Of a stretch of 64,000 bases of DNA, positions 51,010-64,000 are shown one piece after another. A program made the translations under genes and the position numbers. The notes below the pieces were generated by a model. The model searched no databases, was not told where the DNA came from, and was given only the letters and a program-made list of their open reading frames with translations. Origin of the DNA: an uncultured Eubacteriales bacterium (GTDB lineage: Bacteria > Acidobacteriota > Aminicenantia > Aminicenantales > Aminicenantaceae). The first letter of the stretch is position 1. The number at the start of each line of letters is the position of its first letter. Location of the stretch: contig CAYSCS010000073.1 of NCBI GenBank assembly GCA_964429695.1, positions 12,438-76,437 of the forward strand. Direction: 5' to 3'.

Positions 51010-51516
51010 TTACTCTTCGGGTTTGGGATGTTTTATTTTTTCCCATGAAGAGGCAAAATCAAAAGGCTTATCGTGGGCATTTTGATGACAGGTTAAACAA
51101 TGTTTTTCAATCGCAGCCATACTCTCATACAAGATAAGGCCGTTTCTTACAGCTTCTTCTCTATTTTTCATCACATTCAAACTCTTGTAGTTACTTCCGG
51201 GACCGTGGCACACTTCGCATGAAACTCCTTCTTCTTTAAGAAAAGGTTCTTTTTCGTGGAGCGGAGCATGACATTTAAGACAGGCAGGATTTTCTGCAGC
51301 GTTCTCAGCAAGCGCCATTGCTTCTTCAGAGAGGAGGGCTGTATAGGATTTTGCGTGCTTGCTTTCTTCCCAGATAGGATGCTGTTTTCCCTGTTTTTCA
51401 GTCCTGTGGCAGATCTTGCATTTATCCGCCCCCACATACAGGAATTCCTGACTGAGAAGACTCATGGAGCACAAAAAGCCTGTAACAAGGATGACAAGGA
51501 ATGAGACTTTTTTCAT
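51010..51516 (-). CDS. tetrahaem c-type cytochrome, secreted
   Basis: signal peptide; four CXXCH (CKICH, CLKCH, CEVCH, CLTCH). Confidence 0.8.
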   Translation of the reverse strand: MKKVSFLVILVTGFLCSMSLLSQEFLYVGADKCKICHRTEKQGKQHPIWEESKHAKSYTALLSEEAMALAENAAENPACLKCHAPLHEKEPFLKEEGVSCEVCHGPGSNYKSLNVMKNREEAVRNGLILYESMAAIEKHCLTCHQNAHDKPFDFASSWEKIKHPKPEE

Positions 51517-52269: not shown

Positions 52270-53535
52270 TTAGCGCTCTATCTTTTTCTCGATTTTTTTT
52301 ATCTTTAAAAAAATTGCAGTTGCTAGAAGGAAGATGAAAATGGTGGCAATAATCAAGCCTCTTTTCCTGAATTTCGCCTCATTGAGCGCTTTTTCTCCTT
52401 TCTCCTGAACGCTGGAAAGAATCTCTTCTCCTTCATTTATTTTTTTTTCGAAGTCATCGACGTTGAGGCTATGGGTGAGGTTCCTGACCATTACCAGAAG
52501 ATTCTGAGCCTCTCTCAAATCAAACTTCGACTCACTCACCTCAACACCTTTTCTTTCCGCCGTTTCAAGAATTTCTTCCATTTTTTTTATTTTATTTTTG
52601 AAAGATTCGATTCTATTTCTATAGAGGGAAGAGACTTCAAAGCCTTTTGATCCTTGTTCATGGCAATTCAAACAAACGGATTCTTCTCCTGTGCCGAGCA
52701 TTTCATCTCGGGGAGGAAGTATTCTGTGGTTTTCATGGCAAGCCTCGCATTCTGAAATTCCCATTTCTCCAAAAGCCTCTTTATGCGGACTTTGAGAAAA
52801 TAGTTCACTTGCAGAAGGGTGACATTGATGGCAGACAAAGGCAATCGCTGAGACTCCAGGTGGCATTGCCCCATGATTTCCATGACAGTCGTTGCAGACA
52901 GCGGCGGAAAGGTCCTTTTTTTCGAAAAGAGCCCTGGCATGCACACTCTCTCGATAGTCTTTCTCCTGAGTAATGGGAATTGAATATTCCCTCATGTATT
53001 CTTTATCAGAATGACAACGGCCGCACATAGACGGCAAATTCCAGGGGAAAACAAGAGATTTGGGGTGAGAAGCCTCCAGGATGCCGTGAGAACCGTGACA
53101 ATCAATACAGACAGCTACCTTTATGTCTCCCTTTTTTAGCAACTTTCCATGTTGACTTGTCCAGTAGAGCCCAAGCTGGTCGATTCTGAGGCTGGGGTTA
53201 TATTTTCTGATGTAATCAGAATCCTGATGACAGTCCCCGCAGAAAGCAGGAATTTGTTTTCTCCCTGGGGTTCCTTTGAAGGATGAATCCTTCGCACTTT
53301 CAAGGTCATCTTCCTTTTCATTTCCACCGTGACAGGACACACAGGTGAGGCCGAACTTCTGGTGAATGTCGTTTTTAAAAGCCTCGACAGGGGCACGAAG
53401 CCCGTCTTCAAGCTCTCTATGGCATTCAAGGCAACTGTTCTGAGCCTCAGCTTCTGTTACCTGAAGAAGAAAAAGGGAGAGAATCATCAATCCCAAAAAA
53501 ATAAAATAAAATTTATTGAACTTCATTTCCTTCAT
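52270..53535 (-). CDS. nonahaem c-type cytochrome with N-terminal signal and C-terminal transmembrane anchor
   Basis: nine CXXCH motifs; C-terminal hydrophobic helix GLIIATIFIFLLATAIF; start at 53535 (MKEMKF) overlaps the cytochrome b stop. Confidence 0.8.
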   Translation of the reverse strand: MKEMKFNKFYFIFLGLMILSLFLLQVTEAEAQNSCLECHRELEDGLRAPVEAFKNDIHQKFGLTCVSCHGGNEKEDDLESAKDSSFKGTPGRKQIPAFCGDCHQDSDYIRKYNPSLRIDQLGLYWTSQHGKLLKKGDIKVAVCIDCHGSHGILEASHPKSLVFPWNLPSMCGRCHSDKEYMREYSIPITQEKDYRESVHARALFEKKDLSAAVCNDCHGNHGAMPPGVSAIAFVCHQCHPSASELFSQSPHKEAFGEMGISECEACHENHRILPPRDEMLGTGEESVCLNCHEQGSKGFEVSSLYRNRIESFKNKIKKMEEILETAERKGVEVSESKFDLREAQNLLVMVRNLTHSLNVDDFEKKINEGEEILSSVQEKGEKALNEAKFRKRGLIIATIFIFLLATAIFLKIKKIEKKIER

Positions 53536-54617
53536 AGCCTTGGATGAAGATAGGTGTAGAGAGTGATGAGAATTATGTAGAGGAGGATTATCAGCCCTGC
53601 AATCGAGAAAAAGGGACTTTTTTTCTCCCTTGATGCCCTCCTGTCTAAATAGGGAACGAGCATCCAGAGAAGAGCGCCGAAGATGAATCCCACAATGGCG
53701 AGGACCTCTCCTTTGATGGTAAAAACGTGAGAAGGGATTAATTTTAAAGTTGTAAACATGAAGATAAAATACCACTCAGGTTTTATTCCCAGGGGAGTGG
53801 GAGAAAACATGTCCGCCTTTTTTCCTATTTCCCAGGGAAAAAAGACGCATAAAATCCCTATCAAAGAAAGAATGAGTATCCAACCGAGAGAGTCCTTGAG
53901 GATGAAATTGGGGAAAAATGGCACTTCTTTTATTTGCTTTTCTTTAAGCCCTATGGGTTTACTCATTCCCAGGATTTGAACCAGGAGGATATGGAGCCCG
54001 AGAACAAAGACTGTGATTAAAGGGAGGACGATTACATGAAACCAGAAGAACCTCTGCAGCGTGAACTCTGAGACATCCGGGCCCCCGAGGATGAAATTCT
54101 TGAGCTGCTTCCCGATGAGGGGAATTGTGCCTGCAATGTCAGTTCCCACTCTTGTGGCGAAAAAGGAGAGTTCATTCCAAGGCAGGAGATAACCACTGAA
54201 GCCAAAGGCGAGGAAAATAAGAAGGAGTAAAAATCCGCTTACCCAGGTTAGTTCTCGAGGATTGCGGTAAGCCTTGAGAAAAAAGGTACTGAACATGTGG
54301 ATGAAGATGGTGCCGATGAGGATGTTGGCTGTCCAGGAGTGAAAAGAGCGGATGAGCCAGCCAAACCTTACTTCACCCATAATGAATTTAACGCTTTCAT
54401 AGGCGCCGTCGACAGTGGGTTTATAATAAAGGGCTAACATGATTCCTGTCACGACTTGGATGAAGAAAAGAAAAAGACAGATTCCTCCGAAATAATACCA
54501 GAAGGAGAATTTGTGTTCGGGGACCTTTTTCTTTTTGGCCATTTCGATGAGGGAGGAGAGCCTTAATCTTTGGTCAAGGTGAGAGTAGATTACTCTACCT
54601 ATCTTTTTCATTCTCAT
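53532..54617 (-). CDS. full-length cytochrome b (b6 + subunit-IV-like) of a Rieske/cytb quinol oxidoreductase
   Basis: 361 aa, 7-8 TM helices, N-terminal alignment to cytochrome b6 (FGGICLFLFFIQVVTG...), conserved His pairs in helices. Confidence 0.85.
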   Translation of the reverse strand: MRMKKIGRVIYSHLDQRLRLSSLIEMAKKKKVPEHKFSFWYYFGGICLFLFFIQVVTGIMLALYYKPTVDGAYESVKFIMGEVRFGWLIRSFHSWTANILIGTIFIHMFSTFFLKAYRNPRELTWVSGFLLLLIFLAFGFSGYLLPWNELSFFATRVGTDIAGTIPLIGKQLKNFILGGPDVSEFTLQRFFWFHVIVLPLITVFVLGLHILLVQILGMSKPIGLKEKQIKEVPFFPNFILKDSLGWILILSLIGILCVFFPWEIGKKADMFSPTPLGIKPEWYFIFMFTTLKLIPSHVFTIKGEVLAIVGFIFGALLWMLVPYLDRRASREKKSPFFSIAGLIILLYIILITLYTYLHPRL

Positions 54618-55036
54618 GTCCTGGAAACTATGATCTCTTCACCTGAAATCTCTACCTTGTAAGACCTGAGGGGTGAGGGTGGGGGACCTGAGATCACTCT
54701 TCCGCTCAGGTCGAATTTTCCATTATGGCAGGGGCAGAGGATTATTCCTTCTTCACTTTGATAGATAACTGAACAACTAAGATGAGTACATACAGCCGAA
54801 AAAGCAAGAAGTTCACCTTCTTGAGTCTTGATTAAGATGGCAGGTTCTTCGCCGAACTTGAAAATCTTGTGGGTGTTGGGTGGAATTTCTCGAGCCTTTC
54901 CGACAACGACTTTTTTGGCTGTCACCTTGGCTTTCTTAGGAGGAATAAGGTAACGGATAAGGGGATACAGAAAAGAAGCTATCGTTCCCGTCAGGCTCAA
55001 AAAAAGAAAAATATCAATGAAACTTCTTCTTTTCAT
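54614..55036 (-). CDS. Rieske [2Fe-2S] protein
   Basis: CTHLSC...CPCHNGKF boxes; N-terminal KRRSFID Tat-like anchor. Confidence 0.85.
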   Translation of the reverse strand: MKRRSFIDIFLFLSLTGTIASFLYPLIRYLIPPKKAKVTAKKVVVGKAREIPPNTHKIFKFGEEPAILIKTQEGELLAFSAVCTHLSCSVIYQSEEGIILCPCHNGKFDLSGRVISGPPPSPLRSYKVEISGEEIIVSRT

Positions 55037-57023
55037 CTCTACTTTTCTGGATTGATTCTAACTTTTTTTTCAACGCTGTCAAGCTTTCTTCAGTGAAATT
55101 AAAGTTATGTACCCCGAGGCTTCCATCAAGTTCGAATTTTTCGATCAATTTGTGGGCCTCATTGAGTTTAAGGTTTATATATTCTCCCCCCAGCCCCTTT
55201 TCTTTCTTTTCTTTTAATAAAAAGCGACAGGAGTTTAGAAGGGTCCGGGTTGTGGATTGCCATTCATCAAAGATTTCCTTGTATCTATCTTCATGACACT
55301 CTCCACACTTATTCCGGTCAGAGCGATAAACGAGATTGTTTCTTTCCAGGTGGCAGTCGGAGCATCCTACCCCGGCGCTTGCCATCCTATCCTCTGGAAT
55401 TATAAATTCATCTTCCTTGCCTCCTTGATAAAAAGTCTTCTGGAGGAGGTGGCACTCTTCGCACCTTCTTGAGTTTTTCTCATGGTGGCAGGGAGCACAG
55501 CTCTTTTTTGTGGTCACGAGCTCCCCATGTCTTCTGAGATTTAAGTGACAGGAATCGCAGCCAATTTTACTTCCCAGAACATGCGTCTTATGGGAGAAAG
55601 TTAAGCCAAATATGGAGGAGCTGATTTCTTCGATTCCTTCATGACAGGTTATACACTGAGAGGGTATCTCCCCTCCCAAAACCTCGAAGGAAGGAGGAGT
55701 AAAGGGAGATTCGATGAGACGCAGAGCATCCACCATCATTTTATAAGCTGCAGAGAGTAGCTCCAGGGAATAACTCATGTTGTGAACACTCTTCCCCTTT
55801 TCAACGAGTTCGATGTTGAAGAGAGCATCTTCGAGAAGAGATTCAGCATTTTTCTTCTGCGGATGTTTAGTCATTTTTAATTCCTGAAGAATATTGAGGT
55901 ATAGGGAACGAATTTCTCCTATTTTCTTATTCGTGGAAAGCTCCCACTCCTTCAATATCCTTGAGAATCCCTTTCCGTGACATGAGGAGCATGCTTCACT
56001 CCCTGAAACGAGAGTTTCACTCTTGATTTTCTTTCTCCCTTCTTCTTCGTGGAGAAAGTGGCAACCCTTGCAGCTTAACCCCTTTTCGAGCATGAGGTTT
56101 GGTTTTGGATGAGGGATCCCTTTTCCTCCTTCTCCAGTAAAGAGAATTTTCTGGGCAAGATGATGGCCAGCATGGCAAGAGGTGCATTCGGCAATGGCTT
56201 CAATATTTTTCACAATCTTGTGCTGGATTTCTAAGTGGCATTGATTGCACTCGACCTTGTGAAGATAGATATGGGTTTCGTGCATCAAATCTGTATCATC
56301 GTATCTTTTTAACCTCTCTTCTTCCCAGTGACATTTGTAGCAATTTTCTCTGGGTACCTCACCTTCTCCTAGGATGGTATTAGTATGGCATTTCTCACAG
56401 GAAATTCCGTTTTCGATGACCAGAGCATGCTTAAAAGAAGAACTCCCCTCTTCACTAAGAGACTCTCTTTGGTGACAGTGCAGACAATTATCGATTTGAG
56501 GATAGTGTTCACTTCTCTTGAAATGACAGATGAAGCATGAGCTTTCGGTGACGGTGATGTGTTCGCCCTGGACTATCTGAGAATGACAGCTTGTGCACTG
56601 TAGCCTCTTTCCTCTCTTGAGGTCAGAGAAATGGACTCTATGGTCAAAGATAATTTTCTTGAATCTTACCTTCCCCTCTAGAAGCCTCTTCTCATGACAG
56701 CCTTGGCGAAGACAACTTTCGTCTCTTATTTCCGCCCATGGCTTTGATTTGAGGTAGAGCTTTGTCCAGTAGCGTCCCACCATCACCAGCCCTTCCACCT
56801 TCTTCCTGAGTTTGCTCTTCACCCCACCTCCTGGAGGGTAGTGACAGAGGCTGCATTCGAATTTGTTATGGGAGGAAGTTTTCCAGCTTTCAAAGAAAGG
56901 TTTCATGTAATGACACATAGCACAGAAACGAGAGTGGGAGGTGAATTCGATTGAGCCGAAAAGAAAAAGGATGAAAATAGAGGCGATAACGACGGCTACA
57001 ATTAAGCCTTTCTTTCTTTTCAT
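55014..57023 (-). CDS. membrane-anchored multihaem (17 CXXCH + 1 CX4CH) c-type cytochrome with NapC/NrfH-like N-terminus
   Basis: N-terminal TM helix followed immediately by CAMCH; 17 canonical haem-binding motifs across 669 aa. Confidence 0.8.
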   Translation of the reverse strand: MKRKKGLIVAVVIASIFILFLFGSIEFTSHSRFCAMCHYMKPFFESWKTSSHNKFECSLCHYPPGGGVKSKLRKKVEGLVMVGRYWTKLYLKSKPWAEIRDESCLRQGCHEKRLLEGKVRFKKIIFDHRVHFSDLKRGKRLQCTSCHSQIVQGEHITVTESSCFICHFKRSEHYPQIDNCLHCHQRESLSEEGSSSFKHALVIENGISCEKCHTNTILGEGEVPRENCYKCHWEEERLKRYDDTDLMHETHIYLHKVECNQCHLEIQHKIVKNIEAIAECTSCHAGHHLAQKILFTGEGGKGIPHPKPNLMLEKGLSCKGCHFLHEEEGRKKIKSETLVSGSEACSSCHGKGFSRILKEWELSTNKKIGEIRSLYLNILQELKMTKHPQKKNAESLLEDALFNIELVEKGKSVHNMSYSLELLSAAYKMMVDALRLIESPFTPPSFEVLGGEIPSQCITCHEGIEEISSSIFGLTFSHKTHVLGSKIGCDSCHLNLRRHGELVTTKKSCAPCHHEKNSRRCEECHLLQKTFYQGGKEDEFIIPEDRMASAGVGCSDCHLERNNLVYRSDRNKCGECHEDRYKEIFDEWQSTTRTLLNSCRFLLKEKKEKGLGGEYINLKLNEAHKLIEKFELDGSLGVHNFNFTEESLTALKKKLESIQKSRDEKKKFH

Positions 57024-57086: not shown

Positions 57087-57905
57087 TCAGGCATAGGAAT
57101 GGAGACCGGAGATTAAGTAATTCACACCGAAGTAAGTAAACATGGCTGTGAGAAATCCAATGATGGCAATCCATGCTGAACGTCTTCCTCTCCATCCCAT
57201 GAGGAGCCGGGTATGGAGATAAAGGGCGAAGACAAACCAAGTGATCAGGCTCCAGGTCTCCTTTGGATCCCAGCTCCAGTAGCTTCCCCAGGCTTTGTGA
57301 GCCCAGACCATGCCGAAGACAAGTGCTCCCAGAGTAAACAGGGGGAAACCTACGGCAATACACCTGTAACTTATCCAATCCAGCTTCAGGGAAGAGAGAG
57401 AAGATTTAAGTTTCTTTCCTTTTTTCTCTCTTCTCTCTGTGGTTAAATACATGATGCTCGTGATGAAAGCCAAAGCGAAGAAAGCCTCTCCCAGCAGAGT
57501 CACCGAGACATGGAGCCACAACCAGTAACTCTGGAGTGCTGGAACAAGAGGAGTGTGATCTTTGGGCATGAGAGGAGAGGAGGCAAGAGCCATTACTGCC
57601 ATGACGATGAGCAGGAAATAGGGACCAACGTTACGAAATTTGTATTTTTTTTCCATGATGAGATAAGCCAGGATGGAAGACCAGGCTAGAAAGGAGAGTG
57701 ATTCATACATGTTGGTAAAGGGAGCATGACCACTCTCAATGGTGCGCAGGATGAGAGCTAGGGTATGAAGAATGAGACCACCTGCGGCGAAAAAATAGGC
57801 AATTTTTCCCACGGTTTCTCTTTTAGAAAAGAGAAAAGAAAAATAAAAAAAACAAGAGAGGATGTAGGCTAAAAAGGTCACTGAAAATAGAATCGATTCA
57901 TTCAA
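57087..57905 (-). CDS. ccsA: cytochrome c biogenesis (system II) protein CcsA/ResC
   Basis: polytopic; W-rich WGSYWSWDPKETW motif. Confidence 0.8.
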   Translation of the reverse strand: MNESILFSVTFLAYILSCFFYFSFLFSKRETVGKIAYFFAAGGLILHTLALILRTIESGHAPFTNMYESLSFLAWSSILAYLIMEKKYKFRNVGPYFLLIVMAVMALASSPLMPKDHTPLVPALQSYWLWLHVSVTLLGEAFFALAFITSIMYLTTERREKKGKKLKSSLSSLKLDWISYRCIAVGFPLFTLGALVFGMVWAHKAWGSYWSWDPKETWSLITWFVFALYLHTRLLMGWRGRRSAWIAIIGFLTAMFTYFGVNYLISGLHSYA

Positions 57906-59260
57906 CTCCGCCTCCTTAAAGAATCGAATATTTTGTTGAGTTCAGCCTCAAGCGCTTCTTTATTCTTTGAGCTCAAGGCGCCGACTGCAATTTCTGTTGA
58001 TTTTTCTTCTTGCTCGAGGATTGCCTTTATTTCCCTTATAGGCCAGTAGAAGGCAAGCATCAGTCCCATCATCAAAAAGGCACATCCCGTCCAGATGAGA
58101 GGGGTGCCGGGGTCGCGAGCTACCTGAATGACCGAAAATTGCCTTGCCCGTATCTCGGTGATTTCAATTTTTAAATCATCTTTATTCTTCTGGTGAAGAG
58201 AGGCGAAATCTGGAAACCTTGAGAAAACCCATCCTGAGAAAATTCTTTGACCATCTTTCCATCCTTCTATGAAAGCCGCTGGATTATTCGGTTGGAGAGA
58301 GCGCGTCCTTATTTGCTTGTTTTCGTCAATCATGAAATCAGGGACAAAGCGAGTGACTTTAATTTCTATCTCTCCTCCCCAAAGCCTTACTCTTTCACCA
58401 ACCTCCAATGAAATTCTTTCAGGTCCCTCAGTTGATTTATTGTTTGAGATTAGAAGTTCAAGAGAGGGGCTCTCCCAATCCAAGCCATAACTTGATTGAT
58501 AGAAAAGCAAGCCTTTGTAAGATAAGGGATGATTGACTTCAATCACTTTATTAAGTTGGGGCGCTCCTTTTTCTAATACCGTGAGAGTACTCTTCCAGTC
58601 TTTTACGCTTCCGTTAGCATAGAATTCAGTCTCGAATTTTTCCAACCTGATTTTGAAATCAGCTCTAGGAACAGGAATTACTTCTTGTTCGTAGAGGATG
58701 AGGTTTTCACGAAAACCACCCAGACCGCTCAGAATTCCTCCAGCGAGGATGATAAGCAGACCCAAATGCACAATGTCCGAACCGAAGGCACCCAGCAACC
58801 TTTTTCTACCTATAATAAATATTTTCCCTTCACCTTCCCTTTCTCTTACTCGATAGTGTCTGAGTCGGAGCTCCCCTCTCAATTCTTCTTTTGCCTTAAG
58901 CACGCTCCAGTTTTTTCTAATTTTTTTTGAAATTTTTAGAAGCTGGAGATTTTTTTGTTCTGTTTCAAATTGGGGGTTAAGAATCCTTCTTAATTTCGGC
59001 ATGAGGCGAATCAGGGTACAGGTGATGATGTTTAGGGAGAAGATGAAGAGAAGCCCTATGAACCAGAAGGAGTGATAGAGATTTGTAATTTTAAGCCGGA
59101 TTAGAAGCTGAGCAAGAGAGCCATAACGAGCAAAATATTCGGCAGGGGGTCTCTGCTGAGGAACAAGAGTTCCAAATACCGAGGAGATTGTGATGAGGGA
59201 GATGATTACAAGAGCAAGCTTGATGCTCTTAAAAAAATTTAATAATCTTTGCATCAGCAA
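57902..59260 (-). CDS. ccsB: cytochrome c biogenesis (system II) protein ResB/CcsB
   Basis: 452 aa; ResB-like N-terminal TM segments and large periplasmic domain; ATGA overlap with ccsA. Confidence 0.75.
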   Translation of the reverse strand: MLMQRLLNFFKSIKLALVIISLITISSVFGTLVPQQRPPAEYFARYGSLAQLLIRLKITNLYHSFWFIGLLFIFSLNIITCTLIRLMPKLRRILNPQFETEQKNLQLLKISKKIRKNWSVLKAKEELRGELRLRHYRVREREGEGKIFIIGRKRLLGAFGSDIVHLGLLIILAGGILSGLGGFRENLILYEQEVIPVPRADFKIRLEKFETEFYANGSVKDWKSTLTVLEKGAPQLNKVIEVNHPLSYKGLLFYQSSYGLDWESPSLELLISNNKSTEGPERISLEVGERVRLWGGEIEIKVTRFVPDFMIDENKQIRTRSLQPNNPAAFIEGWKDGQRIFSGWVFSRFPDFASLHQKNKDDLKIEITEIRARQFSVIQVARDPGTPLIWTGCAFLMMGLMLAFYWPIREIKAILEQEEKSTEIAVGALSSKNKEALEAELNKIFDSLRRRS

Positions 59261-63281: not shown

Positions 63282-64000
63282 CTATTCCCATCTGTAAGAG
63301 AAAGAAATCTCCAATATGTTCGCTCCGTAATCATTAAACCCAGAGAGCCTCTCTTTAAATTTGAGATAACGATAACCGGCCGAAGCAGAAATACCATTGG
63401 GAAAGAGATATTCAAGATATGCTTTAATCAAATTCCTGGAAATTTCCCAGAAACCCAGATTCCAGTAGAGATTTCCCGAGGCACCGATTTTCAAGCGCTC
63501 TGTTAGATTCAACAGAAGTGAGGAATCAAGAAGGTTCGATCTTCCTTCATAAAGAATTTCCCAGAGAAATGTGCCTCCTGGTCCGCTAAACGAAGGAGGA
63601 TAGGCAATGTTTCGCTTCCCTTCATGTCTCTGATCAATCAAGGAATATCCGCCCGAAACCAAAATTGCTTTGCTCCTGTATGAAGCCTGAAGGCTGAGCT
63701 GATTCCTTCGCGACTGCCAGAGATTTAAAAAGACCTCACTCTCTGAGCCTTTCCAGAGATAGGAACCTAAGAGGTTTATTTTTTCGAAACGAGTCCTGAA
63801 GCTCACTCTGAAACGAGAGAAGCTTGTGGGAGAAATTAGGGTAAAGGGCTCGTCCAGGAATCCATTTTCATAATCGAGATTTATTACGAGGCGAGAAATT
63901 GGTTCGATTCTAAAGTTGCCAAAAATTCCCTTCTTCGTGCTTCTTTCTTCATAGGTTATTGTTTCAAATGGAGAAGTAACTCTTTGAGAAGAAGCTAAGC
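63282..64000 (-). CDS. outer-membrane beta-barrel (porin-like) protein, 5'-partial (continues beyond window end)
   Basis: frame is open from 64000 down to the stop at 63282; amphipathic beta-strand pattern (GANILEISFSYRW, ASAGYRYLKF, GASGNLYWNLGFWEIS); 15 bp upstream of the decahaem gene. Confidence 0.5.
   Translation of the reverse strand, partial: LASSQRVTSPFETITYEERSTKKGIFGNFRIEPISRLVINLDYENGFLDEPFTLISPTSFSRFRVSFRTRFEKINLLGSYLWKGSESEVFLNLWQSRRNQLSLQASYRSKAILVSGGYSLIDQRHEGKRNIAYPPSFSGPGGTFLWEILYEGRSNLLDSSLLLNLTERLKIGASGNLYWNLGFWEISRNLIKAYLEYLFPNGISASAGYRYLKFKERLSGFNDYGANILEISFSYRWE

Follow-up and report, generated by a model that had tools for sequence, protein, structure and literature searches.

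NNT18, an 18-haem membrane-anchored cytochrome with a NapC/NrfH-type head encoded beside Rieske and cytochrome b genes in an Aminicenantia bacterium

The stretch of DNA analysed here, 64,000 nucleotides of contig CAYSCS010000073.1 (GenBank assembly GCA_964429695.1, positions 12,438 to 76,437) from an uncultured bacterium of the acidobacterial class Aminicenantia and referred to below as the window, encodes a 669-residue membrane-anchored cytochrome that we label NNT18. Judged from sequence and predicted fold, NNT18 is a quinol dehydrogenase of the NapC/NrfH type, with quinol oxidation as its predicted reaction, that is extended by 14 haems; it is a real and widespread protein, and one that is ordinary in principle. 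We see an even chance that it acts as a quinol dehydrogenase joined to a long wire of haems, as part of a modular periplasmic or extracellular electron-transfer chain and in parallel to a Rieske/cytochrome b complex. Members of the family probably transfer electrons out of the quinone pool of the membrane to the periplasm, and their genes are frequently, though not in every case, neighbours of Rieske and cytochrome b genes.

An intact gene with a NapC/NrfH-type head and 18 conserved haem sites

The reading frame of NNT18 starts with ATG and runs through 669 codons from 57023 to 55014 on the minus strand, showing no frameshift. A preliminary description, prepared from the letters of the window, had placed the gene at these coordinates, which stand, while the strand needs correcting to minus; a reading on the plus strand was dropped, the translation being full of stops. 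It had also named two genes separated by an unnoticed frameshift as a possible flaw. Such a split is excluded, as the frame is intact and full-length homologues of 658-690 residues are plentiful. NNT18 ends within the Rieske gene, with its stop codon at 55016-55014 and the Rieske ATG at 55036, giving the 23-bp overlap noted before. A 100% identical gene call from JGI has only 630 residues, 39 fewer than NNT18, a length that would fit a start at Met40 (judged from the length difference); such a start would drop the anchor and the first haem motif, and automated annotation would then understate the NapC/NrfH character. A scan for promoters and terminators gave no enrichment over shuffled sequences and was uninformative.

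The N-terminal part of NNT18 carries the features of a NapC/NrfH-type head. A single hydrophobic stretch (residues 7-28) is followed directly by the first haem motif, CAMCHYM, with C34 coming six residues after it, just as the preliminary description had it. A profile search, which had been proposed as a check, matched the Pfam family Cytochrom_NNT (PF03264) with 31.4 bits (gathering cut-off 24.1), and residues 7-151, from the transmembrane helix to the fourth haem, correspond to positions 12-168 of the 174 of the profile. For conservation, we used a family alignment of 72 NNT18 homologues with 28-63% identity, 66 of which match PF03264 as well (best E-value 2.7e-17). The NCBIfam model of NrfH, TIGR03153, is covered from position 5 to 136 of 138 by residues 8-150. 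Among structures in the Protein Data Bank (PDB), the best sequence match is the NrfH of Desulfovibrio vulgaris (2J7A), with an E-value of 2.4e-5 for NNT18 alone as the query and of 1.4e-8 for the family profile. The alignment spans the transmembrane helix, the motif F-C-x-x-C-H-x-M, a conserved His and haem 2, whereas phmmer gave no residue-level match to NrfH for the region of haems 3 and 4.

The AlphaFold2 (AF2) model of NNT18 (pLDDT 86, pTM 0.69) contains a helix at residues 2-28 (pLDDT 82-95) and a long helix at residues 67-87 following haem 2. Using Foldseek, this model was superposed on NrfH (2VR0_F) over 157 columns with a TM-score of 0.56 normalised to NrfH and a probability of 1.0, but with an E-value of 0.07. 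A model of the N-terminal domain alone had a pLDDT of 50 and was too poor for use. The N-terminal region thus does resemble NapC/NrfH by its sequence, with PF03264 above its cut-off and NrfH as the best PDB sequence match, and the Foldseek superposition suggests a similar fold.

In NrfH, the Met of the CXXCHXM motif is the proximal ligand of the haem at the quinol site, and a Lys, Lys82 in D. vulgaris and Lys83 in W. succinogenes, is essential (10.1101/2023.05.03.539133). The corresponding Met40 of NNT18 is kept in 66 of the 72 family members, and a Lys in the position of Lys75 in 59, at 12 to 14 residues after H61 (in NrfH 12 after H70). Pro42 is found in 68/72 and Trp47 in all 72. The His-to-His spacings of the head are 23/49/37 compared with 23/50/20 in NrfH, which puts the unusual CX4CH motif of NNT18 at the position of haem 3 and reveals an insertion of 17 residues before haem 4. 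As this insertion bears the invariant His128 and His131, its sequence is in keeping with a haem 4 that probably has its own ligand instead of a Lys borrowed from a partner enzyme.

Seventeen CXXCH motifs, CAMCH included, and one CX4CH (C104-L-R-Q-G-C109-H110) were counted in NNT18, in agreement with the preliminary description; they take up 36 of the 37 Cys residues, and about 0.001 CXXCH would be expected by chance in a protein of this length. All 18 sites are kept across the 72 homologues. At the third site, 59 of them have CX4CH and the other 13 a plain CXXCH, with both Cys and the His invariant, and this alternation is the strongest evidence at hand for counting CLRQGCH as a haem site. In addition, CLRQGCH aligns with CGSSGCH of the Desulfovibrio cytochrome c3 (1i77), weakly with an E-value of 0.07, and the alignment also covers the following CxxCH-S-x-V-x-G. 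Invariance, interchange with CXXCH and alignment with the c3 motif together rule out a chance pair of Cys. What had been proposed as a possible CX4CH site in a protein titled as having 17 haems is therefore, as far as the alignment can tell, a genuine 18th haem site, and 18 is the better count. Site 13 (C457; nt 55641-55655) varies in a similar manner, with CXXCH in 41/72 and CX3CH in 31/72 homologues. Alternation of CX4CH with CXXCH and of CXXCH with CX3CH at fixed sites, near genes of System II maturation, offers a natural test of how much variation in the attachment motif is tolerated.

Outside the motifs, 15 His residues are conserved (52, 128, 131, 155, 199, 248, 251, 268, 288, 414, 478, 481, 499, 514 and 639), and Met40, Met311 (69/72) and Met547 (59/72) are further candidate ligands. 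These 15 His and three Met give 18 candidates for 18 haems, and they are split over the three haem-bearing regions as 4/8/6, the same as the haems. NNT18 would accordingly have two His/Met haems in addition to the NrfH-type haem 1, a probable assignment. Because the number of conserved ligands matches that of the haems, the sequence suggests an electron-transfer protein rather than an enzyme.

Fourteen haems follow the tetrahaem head (Table 1). Within this part, the class III c3/c7 profiles of Pfam gave clear matches, namely Cytochrome_C7 with 72.5 bits (gathering cut-off 24.8), Cytochrom_c3_2 with 58.9 (25) and Cytochrom_CIII with 39.8 (22.9), and such profiles are matched by 72 of 72 family members. 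The first of two three-helix bundles is modelled with helices 353-384, 390-410 and 416-436 at pLDDT above 90, and the second with helices 580-608, 614-633 and 641-668. BLASTP aligned residues 259-440 with 489-669 (E-value 1e-7), pairing Met311 with Met547 and the invariant V-H-N at 414 with that at 639, so NNT18 holds an internal duplication of a module consisting of haems and a three-helix bundle. These modules weakly resemble OcwA, OmhA, MccA and TvNiR in Foldseek and phmmer searches.

Table 1. Position of NNT18, its parts and its neighbours in the window (residue numbers are those of NNT18)
Feature	Position	Strand	Basis or remark
NNT18 gene, 669-residue 18-haem membrane-anchored cytochrome	55014-57023	minus	reading frame, motif count, full-length homologues
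N-terminal transmembrane anchor (residues 7-28), after MKRKKG	56940-57005	minus	hydrophobicity, AF2 helix 2-28, alignment with NrfH transmembrane helix
NapC/NrfH-type tetrahaem module (residues 29-155; haems 1-4 at C34, C57, C104, C143)	56559-56939	minus	PF03264, TIGR03153, PDB, Foldseek
Haem-1 motif CAMCHYM (CXXCHXM of NrfH; Met40)	56904-56924	minus	motif and NrfH alignment
Haem site 3, CX4CH (CLRQGCH, residues 104-110)	56694-56714	minus	Cys/Cys/His invariant
c3/c7-like multihaem region, haems 5-12 (residues 156-352)	55968-56558	minus	Pfam, all motifs conserved
First three-helix bundle (residues 353-436), invariant V-H414-N415	55716-55967	minus	AF2, conservation, similarity to OcwA (6i5b)
Second multihaem region, haems 13-18 (residues 437-579)	55287-55715	minus	motifs; duplicated relative to 259-352
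Second three-helix bundle (residues 580-669), invariant V-H639-N640	55017-55286	minus	AF2, internal repeat
Rieske 2Fe-2S protein (140 residues, RR signal)	54614-55036	minus	Pfam Rieske, 64.5 bits
Fused cytochrome b (361 residues, b6 and subunit IV-like)	53532-54617	minus	Pfam Cytochrome_B, 175 bits; Cytochrom_B_C
MHC9, 9-haem cytochrome, signal peptide and C-terminal transmembrane helix	52270-53535	minus	ATGA overlap with cytochrome b
c554-like tetrahaem periplasmic cytochrome	51010-51516	minus	Pfam Cytochrome_C554, 48 bits
FAD protein, geranylgeranyl-reductase family, 467 residues	49353-50756	minus	downstream of the cluster
System II cytochrome c maturation: ResB 57902-59260, CcsA 57087-57905	57087-59260	minus	Pfam ResB, 254 bits; Cytochrom_C_asm, 187 bits; immediately upstream of NNT18
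8-haem HAO-family protein, 411 residues	59520-60755	minus	Asp-His pair in CHMGFDHPQWE
10-haem cytochrome, 718 residues	61110-63266	minus	motif count
C-terminal part of beta-barrel-like gene, cut by the window end	63282-64000	minus	sequence character

Family distribution and gene neighbourhood

A search of 5.8 billion proteins yielded 876 matches to NNT18 at E≤1e-5. Nearly all of the best 120 have 658-693 residues, align over 94-100% of NNT18 and share 57-63% identity with it, and the named sequences among these 120 are from Candidatus Aminicenantes. HMMER, run over 1.84 billion representatives clustered at 50% identity, retrieved 364 clusters at E≤1e-30, many of them full length with 28-50% identity. 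In a scan of one genome per GTDB species, relatives were present in at least 592 species genomes, showing 50-63% identity in Aminicenantes and 39-43% in Calditrichota, Gemmatimonadota, Marinimicrobia, Zixibacteria, Ignavibacteria, Kryptonia, Bacteroidota and Glassbacteria. The names of the family in databases are generic, such as "cytochrome c3 family protein" or "nitrate/TMAO reductase-like tetraheme cytochrome c subunit", and full-text literature searches found no description of an 18-haem family of this kind. The preliminary description had called the haem count unusual, which is true only in comparison with characterised NapC/NirT members having 4-9 haems (10.1101/2023.05.03.539133); the 18-haem family itself is common. 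Several genomes of Bacteroidota, Kryptonia and Ignavibacteria (loci L052, L055, L064, L065 and L080) have two tandem NNT18 paralogues, one member of each pair carrying 17-20 CXXCH motifs.

On the minus strand of the window, the genes follow each other from 5' to 3' as a barrel-like protein, a 10-haem cytochrome, an 8-haem HAO-family protein, ResB, CcsA, NNT18, the Rieske protein, cytochrome b, MHC9, a c554-like cytochrome and an FAD protein. NNT18 was rightly placed immediately upstream of the Rieske and cytochrome b genes: the latter two overlap by 4 bp and cytochrome b overlaps MHC9 in an ATGA at 53535-53532, meaning that NNT18, Rieske, cytochrome b and MHC9 are four genes overlapping one another with no gap. 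The true start of MHC9 is the ATG at 53535 in this overlap with the cytochrome b stop, not the GTG at 53775 that had been listed mechanically. MHC9, not NNT18, occupies the canonical position of a c1/f subunit, downstream of cytochrome b and with a C-terminal anchor, and is likely to be its equivalent; its haem domain shares 26-31% identity with that of the CbcL-like multihaem-cytochrome b561 fusions of other phyla. The cytochrome b itself scored best with the NCBIfam models of cytochrome b6 (218 bits) and of ExtP from Geobacter (208 bits), bears the PEWY motif of the Qo site (KPEWYF) and has, by eye, a Tyr (WYYFGG) where b6f carries the haem-ci cysteine.

The closest PDB match of the HAO-like protein is Kuenenia Kustc0458 (6h5l), an HAO without the tyrosine cross-link, and the residue that aligns with Tyr467 of Nitrosomonas HAO is a Leu, with Tyr at -2 and +2. 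Since it is closest to Kustc0458 and has Leu in place of Tyr467, it probably acts as a reductive (nitrite or hydroxylamine) enzyme that would be fed by the NNT18 cluster. The barrel-like gene is truncated by the end of the window; a full-length homologue (L084, 1282-6252 region) has 619 residues, a signal peptide, a beta-barrel-like sequence and no more than a faint match to DUF2490. Relatives of the window have this gene flanked by a cytochrome of about 300 residues and about 10 haems upstream and by the 718-residue decahaem cytochrome downstream, a layout that resembles a porin-cytochrome conduit and that we treat as a putative one. The FAD protein recurs a few kb downstream with 56-61% identity in the Aminicenantes-like loci L008, L014, L021 and L022.

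For comparison, the proteins of the window were searched by tblastn against 83 NNT18 loci, and all open reading frames of these loci were clustered. The loci examined are the closest 80 of at least 592, and the frequencies are biased to that extent; neighbours were counted in 44 loci with at least 4.5 kb on each side, 26 of them Aminicenantes-like and 18 from other phyla, with absence meaning none within the fetched flanks (4.5-8 kb on either side) and not genome-wide. A c554-like gene is the most constant small partner of the family, being found in 39/44 loci (25/26 Aminicenantes-like and 14/18 others). Rieske and cytochrome b occur in 29/44 (22/26 and 7/18, respectively) and were missing in 15/44, with both kinds of loci interleaved among orthologues up to 71% identical. 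In Aminicenantes, the order ResB-CcsA-NNT18-Rieske-cytb-MHC9-c554 is conserved, and three arrangements of the core were seen overall, namely NNT18-Rieske-cytb-MHC9, Rieske-cytb-MHC9-NNT18 and NNT18-c554-Rieske-cytb-MHC9. Where Rieske/cytochrome b is missing, the neighbours are CbcL-type multihaem-cytochrome b561 fusions, NrfC/NrfD pairs, putative porins and cytochromes with 8-20 haems.

An obligate role as a subunit of a bc complex throughout the family is rejected because of these 15 loci, which lack Rieske/cytochrome b within the fetched flanks, and their interleaving with close orthologues. NNT18 is instead a portable module in multihaem, porin-containing clusters (the porins being putative) with interchangeable quinol-reactive modules. 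Of the preliminary description, which had offered either a second quinol entry point or a wire bolted onto the bc-type complex, the NapC/NrfH-type head is borne out, whereas an obligate link to the bc complex is not. One example of a different quinol module is seen in the Marinimicrobia locus L071 (9992-12743), where the genes after NNT18 encode an 8-haem cytochrome, a 4Fe-4S protein like NrfC that bears a twin-arginine signal and a membrane protein like NrfD, as confirmed by Pfam; this NrfC/NrfD module is unlike the Rieske/cytochrome b of the window. In the Zixibacteria locus L059 (10885-12918), open reading frames of similar size lie at the same positions, a match by size and position alone. 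ResB, with CcsA beside it, was found in 26/26 Aminicenantes-like and 0/18 other loci, while the CX4CH site is family-wide, so that a role of ResB/CcsA as a dedicated lyase for this site has no support.

Proposed function and alternatives

In the reading that we favour, NNT18 would be held in the inner membrane by its N-terminal anchor, and its first 150 or so residues would form a menaquinol dehydrogenase head. Quinol would be oxidised at the periplasmic surface of the membrane beside haem 1, with its CXXCHXM motif and the conserved Lys75, and since the protons would be let out to the periplasm, this step would be electroneutral. The electrons could then pass along 17 further six-coordinate haems, through the c3/c7-like stretch and then the two duplicated modules of haems and helix bundle, to recipients such as the c554-like tetrahaem cytochrome, the HAO-like octahaem reductase and the multihaem cytochromes of the putative porin-cytochrome conduit. 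By analogy with systems in which two kinds of quinol oxidase coexist, NNT18 most likely represents a second exit from the quinol pool that does not use a Q-cycle and lies parallel to the Rieske/cytochrome b complex; this parallel operation, like the oxidation of quinol, the direction of electron flow and the partners, is what we infer.

Several points weigh against this reading. The score with TIGR03153 is 45.4 bits and does not reach the equivalog cut-off of 134.2; as it falls that far below, NNT18 by its sequence belongs to the NapC/NirT/NrfH family and is not an orthologue of NrfH, and no NrfA gene is present in the NNT18 cluster. The Foldseek E-value to NrfH is weak, the equivalence of Lys75 to Lys82 of NrfH was drawn from spacing and not from a residue-level structural alignment, and no counterpart of Asp89 of NrfH could be identified in NNT18. 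Menaquinol oxidation is an activity predicted from the sequence. Many of the inspected loci encode another quinol-reactive module, which is Rieske/cytochrome b in 29/44 and CbcL-like or NrfCD in others that were examined, and these co-encoded modules fit equally well with NNT18 being a mere anchored wire that collects their electrons. The tight overlaps with the Rieske, cytochrome b and MHC9 genes argue for stoichiometric co-production, and the porin assignment, at the far end of the proposed chain, is one of sequence character alone.

The overlaps are also what lends weight to the idea that NNT18 forms part of the Rieske/cytochrome b complex as a structural subunit, its NrfH-like head being a mere anchor or docking element and its haem wire taking electrons of the Rieske protein, via or alongside MHC9, outwards across the periplasm. 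We regard this as rather unlikely, although it is the main alternative: not only does the 23-bp overlap with the Rieske gene run on as further overlaps through cytochrome b and MHC9, but the same order is seen in 22/26 Aminicenantes-like loci and in L001-L003, and in other phyla NNT18 is again placed beside a quinol-reactive membrane module. On the other hand, 15 of the 44 well-flanked loci have no Rieske/cytochrome b nearby, orthologues that are mutually 71% identical differ in having it, and NNT18 may stand before it, after it or separated from it by c554. The position and the C-terminal anchor of a c1/f-like subunit are those of MHC9, and retention of the Met (66/72), Lys75 (59/72), Pro42 (68/72) and Trp47 (72/72) in the head would be unexpected for a mere anchor.

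It is improbable in our view that NNT18 runs backwards as a quinone reductase, either taking electrons of an HAO-type oxidation via c554 or those of Fe(II) or an electrode through porin-cytochromes, with the Rieske/cytochrome b complex handling onward or reverse electron flow. This would agree with a cluster that contains an octahaem of the HAO family, a tetrahaem of the c554 family and a cytochrome of the NapC/NrfH type, like the HAO-c554-cM552 module of nitrifiers; proteins of the NapC/NrfH type can in principle work in both directions, and a role as quinone reductase has been proposed for CymA in Fe(II) oxidisers (PMC6295460). Yet the HAO-like protein has the nitrite-reducing Kustc0458 as its nearest match and its Leu at the Tyr467 position points to a reductive role, HAO is absent from most loci outside Aminicenantes, and no context of autotrophy or of an oxidase was seen in the window, which was looked at for this without depth. 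Finally, the resemblance of the haem and helix-bundle modules to MccA, TvNiR, OcwA and OmhA in Foldseek and phmmer could mean that NNT18 is itself a multihaem enzyme, of a type that reduces nitrite, sulfite or hydroxylamine, with its own quinol dehydrogenase attached. The sequence makes a catalytic protein unlikely, and we would give this idea very little credence, as every haem has a conserved candidate sixth ligand, NNT18 has no CXXCK or other active-site motif, and the similarities are weak (E-values of 6.5e-3 to 0.5, TM-score about 0.15) and expected from shared multihaem packing and long helices.

A bolder version of the parallel quinol exit, which we mention as a long shot, is a supercomplex of NNT18, Rieske protein, cytochrome b and MHC9, combining two quinol-oxidising sites, the Qo site of a Q-cycle and an electroneutral one of the NrfH type, on a shared wire of about 27 haems to outer-membrane porin-cytochromes. 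If this were true, a cell could use one machine to switch between energy-conserving and bypass oxidation of quinol, depending on the external acceptor's redox potential, and other phyla would plug the same 18-haem adaptor into CbcL-like or NrfCD modules. In any case, the presence of an NrfH-type site and Rieske/cytochrome b in one overlapping run makes this a system for testing potential-dependent branching of quinol oxidation. Links from menaquinone to multihaem cytochromes are little known outside the Proteobacteria, CymA, ImcH, CbcL and CbcBA being the sole studied ones. Due to its rigidly conserved architecture (one transmembrane helix, 18 haem sites and the duplicated module), its occurrence in at least 592 species genomes of Acidobacteriota/Aminicenantes and the FCB group, and its place in clusters that also hold putative porins, cytochromes with 10-20 haems and quinol modules that are interchangeable, the NNT18 family is a strong candidate for the missing inner-membrane link outside the Proteobacteria.

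Comparison with known systems

The head of NNT18 has its nearest known counterpart in NrfH. Both have one N-terminal transmembrane helix with CXXCHXM coming at once, a conserved His 14 residues on, haem 2 and then an amphipathic helix with a conserved Lys, and both have four haem sites in the first 150 or so residues. In contrast to NrfH with its four haems, NNT18 has 18, and its third site is mostly CX4CH. This motif, together with the c3/c7 Pfam domains found downstream of it, is shared with the cytochrome c3 of Desulfovibrio; the difference is that the module of NNT18 is embedded in a membrane-anchored 18-haem protein, and the alignment between the two is weak (E-value 0.07).

With subunits of Rieske/cytochrome b complexes, NNT18 has in common that its gene overlaps that of the Rieske protein and lies in one overlapping run with cytochrome b. 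It differs from a c1/f-type subunit in its anchor, which is N-terminal and NrfH-like and not C-terminal, and in that many genomes have NNT18 without an adjacent Rieske/cytochrome b, so that MHC9 fits the c1-like role better. In anammox R/b complexes, an HAO-like octahaem is found in the same cluster. Rieske/cytochrome b also adjoins epsilon-Hao in Caldithrix abyssi (PMC5317091), and the cluster of the window likewise has an HAO-like octahaem.

A parallel to the function proposed for NNT18 is seen in ImcH of Geobacter and CymA of Shewanella, inner-membrane quinol oxidases of the NapC/NirT type that serve extracellular electron transfer, in which a NapC/NrfH-like quinol head with extra haems feeds periplasmic and outer-membrane multihaem cytochromes. 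ImcH has three transmembrane helices, seven haems (5-9 in homologues) and His/Gln at haem 1, and CymA has four haems (10.1101/2023.05.03.539133). By comparison with this description of ImcH, the architecture of NNT18 differs: it has 18 haems and one transmembrane helix, together with a Met of the NrfH type and a pair of three-helix bundles. Just as ImcH coexists in Geobacter with CbcL, a quinol oxidase carrying b haems, NNT18 is found together with Rieske/cytochrome b-MHC9 or with CbcL-like fusions.

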